Assembly: GCF_030013595.1 (NCBI RefSeq)
Contig: NZ_CP122768.1
DNA from: Escherichia coli
Lineage (GTDB): Bacteria; Pseudomonadota; Gammaproteobacteria; Enterobacterales; Enterobacteriaceae
Length of the DNA stretch: 64,000 nucleotides
Strand: one strand, 5' to 3'
Shown here piece by piece: positions 1 through 33,707 of this stretch. The notes beneath the pieces are model-generated. The model was not told where the DNA came from. It ran no database searches and saw nothing but the letters and a program-made list of their open reading frames with translations. The translations under genes were made by a program, and so were the position numbers. Position 1 is the first letter of the stretch; each line of letters starts with the position of its first letter.

Positions 1-788
1 ACTTCGCCGAGCATGAACTGACTGCGCAATGCATAATGAAAGTAATATGGTCAATGGTTCTTTCCCATCTTAATGGAAAACGTCAATCACAAGAACGTAG
101 GGAACCGCTTGAGCTTTATAGAATTTACTTCTATGACTGTCCACCACTCGACATTCAAACACGCCTTCCACTTCCTGAGCCTGGCAATAAGACGCCTGGT
201 CGCAAGAATTTCAAACTCGAAAAATCATATATTCTGAGAACGGAGCTGCATGAAGAGTTAAGAAAAACTCGAAAAACAGCCTTAAGATTAGGGAATCTTG
301 TTGATAATAAGCGATGGCAACTAACTACATTCTCCCTTGATGCTCTGATGAAAGGAACGAAAAAATGGGATGAACTGACAAATGATGATTTTTACTATGA
401 CATCAAACAAAAACAAGTTGATATCAAGCTAGGGATGGATATCACGACTTTAGCTTATGAAAAACTTGTTGATGTAATTGTCCTTGTTGCTGGGGACTCA
501 GACTTTGTGCCTGCCGCCAAACACGCCAGAATTAAAGGTATTGATTTTATTCTTGATCCACTAAGACAGAATGTTACCCCATCACTGTCAGAGCACATTG
601 ATGGAGTTCAGTCATACAGCTTGATATCAGGACTTGCCGATGCTTTACATGTTGAGCCAGACCCGGCACCTGACTGGTGGGAAGATCGAAAAAAAGGCAA
701 GCCTAGAGGAAAAAACAATAGCGGTAAACGCAGGTATGGAAACACTCAAGCTGAGTCAGCAAAGAAACATCAAAGAAATAAACGATAA
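1..788 (+). CDS. NYN/LabA-like (PIN-type nuclease fold) domain protein with basic C-terminal tail; immunity-region accessory gene; possibly 5'-truncated by window edge (first ATG at 36, frame open to position 3)
   Basis: 250-aa ORF; motif VLVAGDSDFVPAAKHARIKGIDF typical of NYN/LabA domains; lies upstream of pL/nutL/N, same strand, followed by terminator. Confidence 0.55.
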   Translation, partial: FAEHELTAQCIMKVIWSMVLSHLNGKRQSQERREPLELYRIYFYDCPPLDIQTRLPLPEPGNKTPGRKNFKLEKSYILRTELHEELRKTRKTALRLGNLVDNKRWQLTTFSLDALMKGTKKWDELTNDDFYYDIKQKQVDIKLGMDITTLAYEKLVDVIVLVAGDSDFVPAAKHARIKGIDFILDPLRQNVTPSLSEHIDGVQSYSLISGLADALHVEPDPAPDWWEDRKKGKPRGKNNSGKRRYGNTQAESAKKHQRNKR

Positions 789-2380: not shown

Positions 2381-2452
2381 GCGCGGCGTTACCGCATACC
2401 AATAACGCTTCACTCGAGGCGTTTTTCGTTATGTATAAATAAGGAGCACACC

Positions 2453-2617
2453 ATGCAATATGCCATTGCAGGGTGGCCTGTTGCTGGCTGCCCTTCCGAA
2501 TCTTTACTTGAACGAATCACCCGTAAATTACGTGACGGATGGAAACGCCTTATCGACATACTTAATCAGCCAGGAGTCCCAAAAAATGGATCAAACACTT
2601 ATGGCTATCCAGACTAA
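2453..2617 (+). CDS. cIII: CIII (FtsH/HflB inhibitor)
   Basis: 54 aa [54 protein letters not shown]; matches recalled lambda CIII. Confidence 0.85.
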   Translation: MQYAIAGWPVAGCPSESLLERITRKLRDGWKRLIDILNQPGVPKNGSNTYGYPD

Positions 2618-2729
2618 ATTCACTATCGCCACTTTTATTGGCGATGAAAAGATGTTTCGTGAAGCCGTCGACGCTTATAAAAAATGGATATTAATGCTGA
2701 AACTGAGATCAAGCAAAAGCATTCACTAA
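2586..2729 (+). CDS. kil: Kil (host-killing, FtsZ inhibitor)
   Basis: 47 aa, overlaps cIII 3' end as in lambda. Confidence 0.75.
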
Positions 2730-2804
2730 CCCCCTTTCCTGTTTTCCTAATCAGCCTGGCATTTCGCGGGCGCTATTTTCACAGCCATTTTCAGGAGTTC
2801 AGCC

Positions 2805-3101
2805 ATGAACGCTTATTACATTCAGGATCGTCTTGAGGCTCAGAGCTGGGCGCGTCACTACCAGCAGATCGCCCGTGAAGAGAAAGAGGCAGAACTGGCA
2901 GACGACATGGAAAAAGGCCTGCCCCAGCACCTGTTTGAATCGCTATGCATCGATCATTTGCAACGCCACGGGGCCAGCAAAAAAGCCATTACCCGTGCGT
3001 TTGATGACGATGTTGAGTTTCAGGAGCGCATGGCAGAACACATCCGGTACATGGTTGAAACCATTGCTCACCACCAAGTTGATATTGATTCAGAGGTATA
3101 A
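2805..3101 (+). CDS. gam: Gam (RecBCD inhibitor), short form
   Basis: 98 aa [21 protein letters not shown]...; AGGAG SD 7 nt upstream. Confidence 0.9.
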
Positions 3102-3106
3102 AACGG

Positions 3107-3892
3107 ATGAGTACAGCACTCGCAACGCTGGCAGGGAAGCTGGCTGAACGTGTCGGCATGGATTCTGTCGACCCACAGGAACTGATCACCACTCTTCGCC
3201 AGACGGCATTTAAAGGTGATGCCAGCGATGCGCAGTTCATCGCATTGTTGATCGTCGCCAACCAGTACGGCCTTAATCCGTGGACGAAAGAAATTTACGC
3301 CTTCCCTGATAAGCAGAACGGCATCGTTCCGGTGGTGGGCGTTGATGGCTGGTCCCGCATCATCAATGAAAACCAGCAGTTTGATGGCATGGACTTTGAG
3401 CAGGACAATGAATCCTGTACATGCCGGATTTACCGCAAGGACCGTAATCATCCGATCTGCGTTACCGAATGGATGGATGAATGCCGCCGCGAACCATTCA
3501 AAACTCGCGAAGGCAGAGAAATCACGGGGCCGTGGCAGTCGCATCCCAAACGGATGTTACGGCATAAAGCCATGATTCAGTGTGCCCGTCTGGCCTTCGG
3601 ATTTGCTGGTATCTATGACAAGGATGAAGCCGAGCGCATTGTCGAAAATACTGCATACACTGCAGAACGCCAGCCGGAACGCGACATCACTCCGGTTAAC
3701 GATGAAACCATGCAGGAGATTAACACTCTGCTGATCGCCCTGGATAAAACATGGGATGACGACTTATTGCCGCTCTGTTCCCAGATATTTCGCCGCGACA
3801 TTCGCGCATCGTCAGAACTGACACAGGCCGAAGCAGTGAAAGCTCTTGGATTCCTGAAACAGAAAGCCTCTGAACAGAAGGTGGCTGCATGA
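3107..3892 (+). CDS. bet: Bet (Red-beta single-strand annealing protein)
   Basis: 261 aa, matches recalled lambda Bet. Confidence 0.95.
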
Positions 3893-4569
3893 CACCGGAC
3901 ATTATCCTGCAGCGTACCGGGATCGACGTGAGAGCTGTCGAACAGGGGGATGATGCGTGGCACAAATTACGGCTCGGCGTCATCACCGCTTCAGAAGTTC
4001 ACAATGTGATAGCAAAACCCCGCTCCGGAAAGAAATGGCCTGACATGAAAATGTCCTACTTCCACACCCTGCTTGCCGAGGTTTGCACCGGTGTGGCTCC
4101 GGAAGTTAACGCTAAGGCGCTGGCCTGGGGAAAACAGTACGAGAACGACGCCAGAGCCCTCTTTGAGTTCACTTCCGGCGTGAATGTTACTGAATCCCCG
4201 ATCATCTATCGCGACGAAAGTATGCGCACCGCCTGCTCTCCCGATGGTTTATGCAGTGACGGCAACGGCCTTGAACTGAAATGCCCGTTTACCTCCCGGG
4301 ATTTCATGAAATTCCGGCTCGGTGGTTTCGAGGCCATAAAGTCGGCTTACATGGCCCAGGTGCAGTACAGCATGTGGGTGACGCGAAAAGATGCCTGGTA
4401 CTTTGCCAACTATGACCCACGAATGAAGCGTGAAGGCCTGCATTATGTCGTGGTTGAGCGGGATGAAAATTACATGGCGAGTTTTGACGAGATGGTGCCG
4501 GAGTTCATCGAAAAAATGGACGAGGCACTGGCTGAAATTGGTTTTGTATTTGGGGAGCAATGGCGATGA
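3889..4569 (+). CDS. exo: Exo (lambda exonuclease, Red-alpha)
   Basis: 226 aa, matches recalled lambda Exo; overlaps bet stop. Confidence 0.95.
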
Positions 4570-4748
4570 AGCATCCTCACGATAATATCCGGGTAGGTGC
4601 GATCACTTTCGTCTACTCCGTTACAAAGCGAGGCTGGGTATTTCCCGGCCTTTCTGTTACCCGAAATCCCCTGAAAGCACAGCGGCTGGCTGAGGAGATA
4701 AATAATAAACGGGGAGCTGTATGCACAAAGCATCTCCTGTTGAGTTAA
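4566..4748 (+). CDS. exo-xis region small protein, orf60a-like
   Basis: 60 aa from second in-frame Met; position immediately after exo. Confidence 0.45.
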
Positions 4749-6837: not shown

Positions 6838-7056
6838 ATGTACTTGACACTTCAGGAGTGGAACGCTCGCCAGCGACGCCCAAGAAGCCTTGAAACAGTT
6901 CGTCGATGGGTGCGCGAATGCAGGATATTCCCTCCTCCGGTTAAGGATGGAAGAGAATATCTGTTCCACGAATCAGCGGTAAAGGTTGACTTAAATCGAC
7001 CAGTAACAGGTAGCCTTTTGAAGAGGATCAGAAATGGGAAGAAGGCGAAGTCATGA
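6838..7056 (+). CDS. xis: Excisionase Xis
   Basis: 72 aa MYLTLQEWNARQRRPRSLETVRRWVRECRIF...; matches recalled lambda Xis. Confidence 0.95.
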   Translation: MYLTLQEWNARQRRPRSLETVRRWVRECRIFPPPVKDGREYLFHESAVKVDLNRPVTGSLLKRIRNGKKAKS

Positions 7057-8104
7057 GCGCCGGGATTTACCCCCTAACCTTTATATAAGAAACAATGGAT
7101 ATTACTGCTACAGGGACCCAAGGACGGGTAAAGAGTTTGGATTAGGCAGAGACAGGCGAATCGCAATCACTGAAGCCATACAGGCCAACATTGAGTTATT
7201 TTCAGGACACAAACACAAGCCTCTGACAGCGAGAATCAACAGTGATAATTCCGTTACGTTACATTCATGGCTTGATCGCTACGAAAAAATCCTGGCCAGC
7301 AGAGGAATCAAGCAGAAGACACTCATAAATTACATGAGCAAAATTAAAGCAATAAGGAGGGGTCTGCCTGATGCTCCACTTGAAGACATCACCACAAAAG
7401 AAATTGCGGCAATGCTCAATGGATACATAGACGAGGGCAAGGCGGCGTCAGCCAAGTTAATCAGATCAACACTGAGCGATGCATTCCGAGAGGCAATAGC
7501 TGAAGGCCATATAACAACAAACCCTGTCGCTGCCACTCGCGCAGCAAAATCAGAGGTAAGGAGATCAAGACTTACGGCTGACGAATACCTGAAAATTTAT
7601 CAAGCAGCAGAATCATCACCATGTTGGCTCAGACTTGCAATGGAACTGGCTGTTGTTACCGGGCAACGAGTTGGTGATTTATGCGAAATGAAGTGGTCTG
7701 ATATCGTAGATGGATATCTTTATGTCGAGCAAAGCAAAACAGGCGTAAAAATTGCCATCCCAACAACATTGCATGTTGATGCTCTCGGGATATCAATGAA
7801 GGAAACACTTGATAAATGCAAAGAGATTCTTGGCGGAGAAACCATAATTGCATCTACTCGTCGTGAACCGCTTTCATCCGGCACAGTATCAAGGTATTTT
7901 ATGCGCGCACGAAAAGCATCAGGTCTTTCCTTCGAAGGGGATCCGCCTACCTTTCACGAGTTGCGCAGTTTGTCTGCAAGACTCTATGAGAAGCAGATAA
8001 GCGATAAGTTTGCTCAACATCTTCTCGGGCATAAGTCGGACACCATGGCATCACAGTATCGTGATGACAGAGGCAGGGAGTGGGACAAAATTGAAATCAA
8101 ATAA
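7034..8104 (+). CDS. int: Integrase Int (tyrosine recombinase)
   Basis: 356 aa MGRRRSHERRDLPPNLYIRNNGYYCYRDPRTGKEF...; matches recalled lambda Int; overlaps xis. Confidence 0.97.
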   Translation: MGRRRSHERRDLPPNLYIRNNGYYCYRDPRTGKEFGLGRDRRIAITEAIQANIELFSGHKHKPLTARINSDNSVTLHSWLDRYEKILASRGIKQKTLINYMSKIKAIRRGLPDAPLEDITTKEIAAMLNGYIDEGKAASAKLIRSTLSDAFREAIAEGHITTNPVAATRAAKSEVRRSRLTADEYLKIYQAAESSPCWLRLAMELAVVTGQRVGDLCEMKWSDIVDGYLYVEQSKTGVKIAIPTTLHVDALGISMKETLDKCKEILGGETIIASTRREPLSSGTVSRYFMRARKASGLSFEGDPPTFHELRSLSARLYEKQISDKFAQHLLGHKSDTMASQYRDDRGREWDKIEIK

Positions 8105-8238: not shown

Positions 8239-9522
8239 GTGAACACATTTTCAGTTTCCCGTCTGGCGCTGGCATTGGCTTTTGGCGTGACGCTGACCGC
8301 CTGTAGCTCAACACCGCCCGATCAACGTCCTTCTGATCAAACCGCGCCTGGTACCTCTTCTCGCCCGATTCTGTCGGCAAAAGAAGCGCAGAATTTCGAT
8401 GCTCAACACTATTTTGCATCCCTGACACCAGGTGCGGCAGCGTGGAATCCTTCCCCGATTACCCTGCCTGCGCAACCTGACTTTGTTGTCGGCCCGGCGG
8501 GTACTCAAGGTGTAACGCATACCACGATTCAGGCGGCGGTAGATGCGGCAATTATCAAGCGCACCAACAAGCGCCAGTATATTGCCGTGATGCCTGGTGA
8601 GTATCAGGGAACGGTGTATGTCCCTGCCGCTCCGGGTGGAATTACTCTGTACGGTACAGGTGAAAAACCGATTGATGTGAAGATTGGGCTTTCCCTTGAT
8701 GGTGGCATGAGCCCTGCCGACTGGCGTCACGACGTCAACCCGCGCGGCAAATATATGCCAGGTAAACCGGCGTGGTATATGTACGATAGCTGCCAGAGCA
8801 AACGCAGCGACAGTATCGGCGTTCTCTGCTCTGCGGTCTTCTGGTCACAAAACAATGGCCTGCAACTGCAAAACCTGACCATCGAAAACACGCTGGGCGA
8901 TAGCGTAGATGCGGGTAACCATCCGGCGGTGGCACTGCGTACTGATGGCGACAAAGTGCAGATCAATAACGTCAACATTCTCGGTCGTCAGAACACCTTC
9001 TTTGTCACCAACAGCGGTGTGCAGAACCGTCTGGAAACCAACCGTCAGCCGCGTACTCTGGTGACCAACAGTTACATTGAAGGGGATGTGGATATCGTTT
9101 CTGGTCGCGGCGCAGTGGTGTTCGATAACACCGAATTCCGCGTGGTGAACTCACGTACTCAGCAAGAAGCGTATGTGTTTGCACCGGCAACACTGTCTAA
9201 CATCTATTACGGTTTCCTCGCCGTAAACAGCCGTTTCAATGCTTCCGGTGATGGCGTGGCGCAACTGGGCCGCTCGCTGGATGTTGATGCCAATACCAAC
9301 GGTCAGGTGGTGATCCGTGATAGCGCCATCAACGAAGGTTTTAACACAGCCAAACCGTGGGCTGATGCGGTGATCTCTAATCGTCCGTTTGCGGGTAACA
9401 CCGGCAGCGTTGATGATAACGACGAAGTACAGCGTAATCTGAATGACACTAACTACAACCGCATGTGGGAATACAATAACCGCGGCGTGGGTAGCAAAGT
9501 GGTTGCAGAGGCGAAGAAGTAA
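8239..9522 (+). CDS. ybhC: YbhC, outer-membrane lipoprotein of the pectinesterase fold (acyl-CoA thioesterase)
   Basis: 427 aa, lipoprotein signal (LTACSS); GTG start; attB-flanking position. Confidence 0.9.
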   Translation: MNTFSVSRLALALAFGVTLTACSSTPPDQRPSDQTAPGTSSRPILSAKEAQNFDAQHYFASLTPGAAAWNPSPITLPAQPDFVVGPAGTQGVTHTTIQAAVDAAIIKRTNKRQYIAVMPGEYQGTVYVPAAPGGITLYGTGEKPIDVKIGLSLDGGMSPADWRHDVNPRGKYMPGKPAWYMYDSCQSKRSDSIGVLCSAVFWSQNNGLQLQNLTIENTLGDSVDAGNHPAVALRTDGDKVQINNVNILGRQNTFFVTNSGVQNRLETNRQPRTLVTNSYIEGDVDIVSGRGAVVFDNTEFRVVNSRTQQEAYVFAPATLSNIYYGFLAVNSRFNASGDGVAQLGRSLDVDANTNGQVVIRDSAINEGFNTAKPWADAVISNRPFAGNTGSVDDNDEVQRNLNDTNYNRMWEYNNRGVGSKVVAEAKK

Positions 9523-32049: not shown

Positions 32050-32991
32050 ATGGCGCACTCACACTCACACACTTCCTCACACCTGCCAGAAGATAATAAT
32101 GCTCGTCGCTTGTTGTATGCTTTCGGCGTGACTGCCGGGTTTATGCTCGTAGAAGTCATTGGTGGTTTTCTTTCCGGTTCTCTGGCATTGCTGGCCGATG
32201 CGGGTCATATGTTGACCGATACTGCCGCCCTGCTTTTCGCCCTACTCGCAGTGCAATTTTCCCGTCGTCCTCCCACCATTCGCCACACTTTCGGTTGGCT
32301 AAGATTGACCACGCTCGCGGCGTTTGTGAATGCCATCGCCCTGGTGGTGATTACTATTTTGATTGTCTGGGAGGCGATAGAACGCTTCCGCACTCCGCGT
32401 CCGGTCGAGGGCGGCATGATGATGGCAATTGCCGTGGCTGGGCTGCTGGCAAATATACTTTCTTTCTGGTTACTTCATCACGGCAGCGAAGAGAAAAACC
32501 TCAACGTGCGAGCAGCGGCACTGCATGTGCTCGGGGACCTGCTGGGTTCGGTTGGGGCTATTATTGCCGCGTTGATTATTATCTGGACCGGCTGGACACC
32601 TGCTGACCCCATTCTCTCAATACTGGTGTCGCTTCTGGTTCTGCGTAGCGCGTGGCGACTGTTGAAAGATAGCGTGAATGAATTACTTGAAGGTGCACCG
32701 GTATCGCTGGATATCGCCGAACTGAAGCGTCGTATGTGCCGGGAAATCCCGGAAGTCCGCAATGTGCACCATGTACATGTATGGATGGTAGGCGAGAAGC
32801 CGGTGATGACGCTGCATGTGCAGGTGATCCCGCCACACGATCACGATGCCTTGTTAGATCAGATCCAACACTACCTGATGGATCACTATCAGATTGAGCA
32901 CGCCACTATTCAGATGGAATATCAACCTTGTCATGGGCCAGACTGCCACCTGAATGAAGGGGTGTCTGGCCATTCACATCATCACCATTAA
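32050..32991 (+). CDS. zitB: Zinc efflux transporter (CDF family)
   Basis: 313 aa, His-rich termini. Confidence 0.9.
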
Positions 32992-33707
32992 TGGGACAGC
33001 GCGCGTGAACCTCTTTCGCGTGCGCTGTTGATCCACATCCGGCTGCCGTTGAGGGCAATAAAGGTCAGGATGATGTACTCCAGAGACATGGCGTAAACGC
33101 CCTGAAGTGCAAAAATAACGACGCTAATCACGTTAATAATCACCCACAACAGCCAGTTTTCCACATACTTACGCGTCATCAGAATCATTGCCACGATAGA
33201 TAACACCATCATGCATGAATCCCAGAACGGGAAAGCGTCCGGTTGCAGTTCAGGCATCACAACCTGTAATCCTAATGCTTGCATGATCATGACTGCCACG
33301 CGGGTCAAAAATGCAAACACCGGATTGATAAATACCGTCATCAGACCAATCGAAACAACGCAAACCGCCAACCAGCTTAGCGCCTTCGGCAATGGCAACC
33401 AGCGAATTTTCAACTCCGCCTCGTTCTGACTGGTTTGTCGCGACCACGCATACCAACCGTAAATATTCGCGGCAAAGAAAAACACCTGTAATAGCAGGCT
33501 GGCATACAGCTGAATCTGAAAGAAAATAATGCCAAACAAGGTGACGTTGATCAGGCCAAAGAAGTAGTTGCTGATCTTCTCCAGACTGGCAAGGCCAATA
33601 CACAGCAACCCGGCGATCGTGCCTACCGCTTCGATCCATGAGAGATCATAACCGCCTGCTCCTATTGGTATATGTACCAGGATATTCTGCACACTAAAAA
33701 AATCCAT
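32988..33707 (-). CDS. pnuC: Nicotinamide riboside transporter
   Basis: 239 aa membrane protein. Confidence 0.9.

Follow-up and report, generated by a model that had tools for sequence, protein, structure and literature searches.

Two forms of Gam, long (GamL) and short (GamS), are described for bacteriophage lambda, and the gam locus of a lambdoid prophage of Escherichia coli (assembly GCF_030013595.1, contig NZ_CP122768.1) raises the question of which of them is encoded there. We analyzed a stretch of 64,000 nucleotides of this contig, referred to as the window, in which an ATG upstream of gam opens a reading frame that resembles the N-terminal extension of lambda GamL and is out of frame with gam. 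Is this frame a disrupted leader, a gene of its own, the first part of a recoded long protein or the result of a sequencing error?

Reading frames and surroundings of the gam locus

The segment from 2400 to 4600 on the plus strand corresponds to the leftward early (pL) operon of a lambdoid prophage, with the gene order cIII-kil-gam-bet-exo. The features of this segment are as follows.

2440-2498, plus strand: cIII thermoregulator RNA (Rfam Lambda_thermo; full-length match, 88.5 bits)
2453-2617, plus strand: cIII
2586-2729, plus strand: kil, 47 aa (Pfam PF06301 Lambda_Kil, E 2e-20)
2684-2836, plus strand: 50-codon upstream frame, remnant of the lambda GamL leader (ORF list and lambda alignment)
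2730-2804, plus strand: spacer between kil and gam, 75 nt long (lambda, 74 nt; third allele, 73 nt)
2788-2791, plus strand: T4 homopolymer run, T3 in lambda (alignment, difference list and allele check)
2793-2797, plus strand: GamS Shine-Dalgarno sequence AGGAG, 7 nt before ATG 2805
2805-3101, plus strand: gam short form (GamS, 98 aa; ORF, Pfam PF06064 and PDB matches)
3107-3892, plus strand: bet
3889-4569, plus strand: exo

The ATG at 2684 lies in the 3' end of kil, in a frame different from that of kil, and the ORF list assigns to it 50 codons on the plus strand, up to a TGA stop at 2834-2836. The first 46 nt of this frame are located within kil and the last 32 nt over gamS. ATG 2684 and the gam ATG (2805) are 121 nt apart, which places the upstream frame at +1 with respect to gam. 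In the gam frame there is a TAA at 2748-2750, followed by no ATG, GTG or TTG until 2805, so that the longest Gam that can be read from a canonical start codon has 98 aa. With its 50 codons the upstream ORF is of unremarkable length, since the first 6 kb of the window contain 78 ORFs of at least 30 aa. The initial annotation had reported the length, the +1 offset and the stop of this frame exactly as we find them, and its statement that only the short gam is intact (98 aa, from 2805, with a good Shine-Dalgarno sequence) also holds, as AGGAG is found 7 nt off the ATG. As to kil, start annotations disagree: records of Stx phages use the longest ORF (2460-2729, 89 aa), whereas lambda and the PGAP annotation use the 47-aa form (2586-2729), which is the form that matches Pfam Lambda_Kil.

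The ORF at 2805-3101 matched the Pfam family Gam (PF06064) with an E value of 3.4e-65 and 216.8 bits (cut-off 25), residues 1-98 aligning to positions 1-98 of the 98 model positions. In the annotated lambda product this model covers residues 41-138, and the leader falls outside it. Matches to GamS were also obtained with the PDB entries 5MBV (chain A, E 2.5e-61, residues 1-98), 2UUZ and 2UV1, all at an E value of about 2.5e-61; the solved Gam structures are all of the 98-99 aa form, 2UUZ and 2UV1 being crystal structures and 5MBV the complex with RecBCD. The ORF is located in a Red-operon context, with kil (2586-2729) upstream and bet (3107-3892) and exo (3889-4569) downstream. The duplex of its AGGAG with the 3' end of 16S rRNA was calculated at -6.9 kcal/mol, which is among the strongest 3.5% of the 1159 ATGs of the window and similar to the pairing energies of cIII, kil, bet and exo.

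The first definition of GamS is reportedly that of Friedman and Hays (1986), who described a truncated Gam encoded on a plasmid and fully active in inhibiting RecBCD. Wilkinson et al. (eLife 2016) describe Gam as existing in the forms GamL and GamS, the latter corresponding to residues 41-138, document the activity of lambda GamS against RecBCD, and solved the structure of GamS bound to RecBCD, where GamS mimics DNA and blocks the DNA-binding site (PMC5218532). Inhibition of RecBCD is achieved by GamS alone, which is the form present in the complex structure (PMC5218532). The GamS of the window probably inhibits RecBCD as well, given its 96-98% identity to lambda GamS. GamL is treated in the literature as a real second isoform (PMC5218532; PMC11610958). 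Both GamL and GamS potentiated quinolones when expressed from a plasmid (PMC5218532), and in Klebsiella pneumoniae plasmid-borne GamL was generally somewhat more effective than GamS, whereas larger zones were obtained with GamS in the wild-type strain (PMC5218532; PMC11610958).

Several features were noted in the surroundings of the operon. A 250-aa ORF at 36-788 (plus strand) contains an NYN (PIN-like nuclease) domain (Pfam PF01936, E 6e-9) and lies directly upstream of an N-type antiterminator (1228-1500, PF25694), in the slot that rexB and sieB occupy in lambda. In the closest complete E. coli genomes, the match to the window starts only at approximately 795, which indicates that the NYN ORF is variable cargo; it is a candidate lysogenic-conversion or anti-phage gene. 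None of the complete E. coli genomes in the collection covered the whole first 9 kb, the best one showing 98.5% identity over 91% of the query. At the other side, the ORF at 7034-8104 occupies the position of the integrase in related genomes and is followed directly by the ybhC-equivalent ORF at 8239-9522. The prophage is therefore located at lambda attB, and the sequence beyond approximately 8.2 kb is host chromosome. In the host part there are seven tRNA genes accompanied by RtT repeats (35.0-36.1 kb) and a cpoB/ybgF thermometer (37.05-37.19 kb).

The additional T and its distribution among phages

To compare the locus with lambda, we aligned positions 2440-3110 of the window with 32700-33600 of lambda J02459. 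The DNA identity was 98% over the 671 nt aligned, and the sole indel was an extra T in the window, which has TTTT at 2788-2791 where lambda J02459 has TTT. Four substitutions, at 2696, 2757, 2773 and 2786, were found between 2684 and 2804. In lambda J02459, gam is annotated at 32816..33232 as a protein of 138 aa (GamL), within which the 98-aa GamS starts at Met41. The extra T throws the first 36 codons of this 138-codon frame off the junction and the remaining 98 codons. Up to the frameshift point, the 50-aa product shares 33 of 37 residues with the N-terminus of lambda GamL (residues 1-37), and this leader-like appearance is explained by the DNA identity to lambda of approximately 97%. The window and lambda share the gene order, the Shine-Dalgarno sequence and the start codon, and of the 98 residues of GamS they differ in two (Q62-equivalent, I for L; and A for S). 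In lambda the 138-codon frame is intact, whereas in the window it is interrupted and only GamS can be encoded: the leader is homologous to lambda residues 1-40, but its ATG stands at an offset of 121 nt to GamS, with stops at 2834-2836 in its own frame and at 2748-2750 in that of gam.

The resemblance to the extension of the 138-aa lambda Gam that had been suspected in the initial annotation is thus real. Two explanations had been offered there for the frame offset, a single-base difference from lambda or an imprecise idea of the long form. The alignment identifies the former, one extra T at 2788-2791, as the right one and dismisses the latter, since the lambda record does contain a 138-aa gam. 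Nor does lambda have the same nucleotides here, as the aligned J02459 sequence differs by the indel and the four substitutions.

The T4 allele of the window, CCATTTTCAGG, is also present in 933W, the Stx2-converting phage 86 and AU5Stx1. Over the same 671 nt the gam region of the window is 99.0-99.6% identical to those of 933W (AF125520), Stx2 phage 86 (AB255436), AU5Stx1 (KU977419) and BP-4795, and these Stx-converting phages share with the window the T4 allele and a gam annotated with 98 aa (297 nt). The record of Stx2 phage 86 (AB255436) has two CDSs named "gam", the additional one being a 153-nt upstream ORF that encodes a product 100% identical to the 50-aa product of the window. The window is separated from these phages by a few single-nucleotide differences, such as the C at 2773, a rare state with 3 of 125 haplotype instances among the matches listed, and by its position at lambda attB next to ybhC.

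We then scanned IMG/VR with an anchored pattern (kil stop, 55-85 nt, gamS start), which returned at least 120 loci from what is a non-random sample. The 120 matches listed, together with the reference loci and the window, amount to 125 loci. Among these, the spacer had 74 nt, as in the in-frame arrangement of lambda, at 67 of the 125 loci; 75 nt, as in the window, at 49; and 73 nt at 9. The 73-nt spacer arose by a change from C5 to C4 just after the kil stop, which leaves an upstream ORF of 21 codons, and this C4 allele represents a second event, independent of T4, that disrupts the GamL frame. No more than two independent frameshift events were detected in this set of listed matches. A complete 98-codon GamS ORF was found at all 55 untruncated frameshifted loci among the matches listed. 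T4 is an inherited allele that is frequent in lambdoid and Stx phages, and roughly half of the lambda-type gam loci among the matches listed have no in-frame leader.

A tblastn search of the GenBank phages with the 138-aa GamL provided approximately 90 records with at least 95% identity, in which the frame is fused, and 89 records in the band between 80 and 90%. The sampled records of this band were 933W-like and of the Stx type, with alignments starting at residues 14-19 instead of at residue 1; judging from these alignment starts in the sampled records, we take the band to represent the frameshifted layout. PGAP annotates a 297-nt gam in the closest complete E. coli genome, whose allele is T3. 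The same applies to the true lambda prophage of K-12 NCM3722, for which PGAP still annotates a 297-nt, 98-aa gam on an in-frame allele.

The distribution of the allele also bears on whether the extra T is genuine. The difference sits in a homopolymer run, a typical site of indel errors, and an assembly or sequencing error could have hidden a lambda-like sequence with an intact 138-codon gam. However, a run of 4 is very short for an error of this kind, and among the matches listed T4 always occurs with C at the position equivalent to 2786 (48/48) and T3 always with T (78/78). This complete linkage indicates that T4 is a single inherited haplotype and not the outcome of recurrent slippage or random homopolymer error. 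The identical haplotype was, in addition, found in many independently sequenced phages, including 933W and Stx2 phage 86 from the Sanger era. An error in the window is accordingly extremely improbable, and the concern about read support for the extra base that had been raised initially was not upheld, given the many independently sequenced phages and prophages that carry T4 in full linkage with the 2786 polymorphism.

Constraint on the leader and possible roles of the upstream frame

We assessed the constraint on the leader from polymorphism counts in an alignment of 110 sequences; the counts are small and come from closely related sequences in a non-random IMG/VR sample. In this alignment the kil-gam spacer had the highest density of polymorphic sites (20/74, 0.27), as compared to 0.18 in gamS, 0.125 in kil and 0.15 in cIII. 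The distribution of polymorphic sites over the three codon positions was 6/7/7 in the spacer, read in the GamL frame, 16/13/25 in gamS and 7/6/12 in cIII. The spacer in the 110-sequence alignment thus had no excess at third positions, unlike gamS and cIII. Two indel columns were present in the 74-nt spacer, one each in cIII and kil, and none in the 297 nt of gamS, so that the two in the spacer are the only ones between the kil stop and the gam stop. These polymorphism counts support, but do not prove, that the leader is without coding constraint.

In more divergent gam homologues, the coding sequence starts with the methionine of GamS. There is no room for a leader in phiSTEC1589-Stx1c and Shigella phage 75/02 Stx, as their 98-aa gam overlaps the end of an exodeoxyribonuclease VIII gene. 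The Gam of Cronobacter phage phiES15 has 96 aa, with CAGGAG ahead of its ATG. The Gam of phage Dewey is annotated with 141 aa, and its extension is unrelated to the lambda leader; Dewey keeps an internal TTTCAGGAG, followed 7 nt on by an ATG at the GamS position. The arrangement of AGGAG plus ATG is therefore common to Dewey and phiES15, and GamS is the only part retained in the divergent homologues.

The upstream ATG has no Shine-Dalgarno sequence, the energy of pairing with the 3' end of 16S rRNA being +0.4 kcal/mol, and the 50-aa ORF had no match in Pfam. The length of the product read from this ATG varies with the allele (138, 50 or 21 aa). These properties are relevant to two further explanations. 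Firstly, the long form might still be made from the T4 allele, either by a programmed +1 frameshift at CAU-UUU-C, with tRNA-Phe leaving UUU to re-pair with UUC, or by slippage of the RNA polymerase along the T run. The needed shift is indeed +1, U-UUU-C is slippery in principle, and the frame after the shift would recreate the junction between leader and GamS of lambda. Nevertheless, there is no stimulator and no upstream Shine-Dalgarno-like element at the right spacing, the A site holds CAG, which is neither a rare nor a stop codon, and a 131-nt fold showed no significant structure (z = -0.45). A run of T4 is too short for transcriptional slippage, the C4 allele with its 21-aa ORF would require another kind of shift, at another position, and the ATG from which the long form would start lacks a Shine-Dalgarno sequence. 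Programmed frameshifting is characterized by a slippery sequence and a stimulator that are conserved; this combination was not found at gam, where both the site and the direction of the needed shift differ by allele. In the part of a comprehensive review on frameshifting that was available (PMC5009743), gam is unmentioned. Production of GamL from T4 by recoding is almost certainly not taking place.

Secondly, the 50-codon ORF might be a separate small gene or a regulatory upstream ORF that tunes GamS, in which case the allele classes would set Gam levels. It spans the Shine-Dalgarno sequence and the start codon of gamS and ends 32 nt inside gamS, and since ATG 2684 is preceded by an A-rich sequence, a certain amount of initiation could occur there without a Shine-Dalgarno sequence. 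Against such a role, the ORF has neither a Shine-Dalgarno sequence nor a family match, the C-terminus and the length of its product (21, 50 or 138 aa) are not conserved, the spacer shows no codon-position bias, and the ORF is absent altogether from the divergent gam loci. We consider a gene or regulatory function of this ORF very unlikely. The 50-codon upstream frame is most likely not a gene, and ATG 2684 is probably not translated to a meaningful extent.

A scan for terminator-like elements detected a small, GC-rich hairpin within the kil-gam spacer at 2754-2771 (plus strand), composed of GCCTG, an 8-nt loop and CGGGC, with a T-rich tract up to approximately 2781. Across 24 haplotypes its pairing is preserved in 99% of cells, a C-G to U.G to U-A series included. 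A functional hairpin or terminator at 2754-2771 was nonetheless not retained, as its pairing was no better than that of shuffled controls (251/500), and it is noted as a lead only. The lambda tL2 terminator cluster maps between bet and ral. Rfam gave no match in the kil-gam spacer, the only match nearby being the cIII thermoregulator.

GamS and GamL in lambdoid phages

Considering the distribution of the alleles, the polymorphism data and the divergent homologues, GamS is very probably the conserved product of gam, the leader being unconstrained spacer plus the 3' end of kil, and the window carrying the common T4 allele that encodes GamS only. According to this explanation, GamS would be translated from ATG 2805 by means of the AGGAG at 2793-2797 and would inhibit RecBCD by DNA mimicry. 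What is called the leader would consist of the kil 3' end and an unconstrained spacer that by chance is open and in frame in lambda. The change from T3 to T4 in the spacer would put this leader out of frame and create a meaningless 50-codon ORF; it would have no effect on GamS and would leave the prophage with GamS as its only form of Gam. Loss of GamL is likely to have no phenotype. The T4 allele is already known and is widely distributed, with no evident consequence.

Two observations may be set against the chance origin of the leader and the neutrality of its loss. The published differences between GamL and GamS mean that the loss of GamL could matter, and the in-frame allele is the most frequent class (67/125 among the matches listed), so that there could be weak selection for the in-frame state. 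GamL might be functionally distinct, in its potency or in its range of targets among RecBCD, SbcCD and the defense proteins that are reportedly inhibited by Gam, such as KwaB of Kiwa, and phages would be polymorphic for this function. The support for a distinct GamL consists of the published differences from GamS, which are modest, and we consider this possibility very unlikely.

The main value of the conserved-GamS reading lies in annotation. The 138-aa "Gam" of J02459 and NC_001416 is a longest-ORF call, whereas the unit that is conserved and functional is the 98-aa GamS. A frameshifted leader should be annotated neither as a pseudogene nor as part of a split gene (as was done in AB255436), and it should not be taken for an assembly error. 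The allele survey also provides modest comparative support for GamL being dispensable. If, on the other hand, GamL is distinct, lambdoid phages would fall into natural classes with GamL plus GamS and with GamS only, toggled by the length of a homopolymer in the spacer. The prophage of the window and the 933W-type Stx phages would then belong to the GamS-only class, and the locus would represent a standing functional polymorphism in a counter-defense gene.
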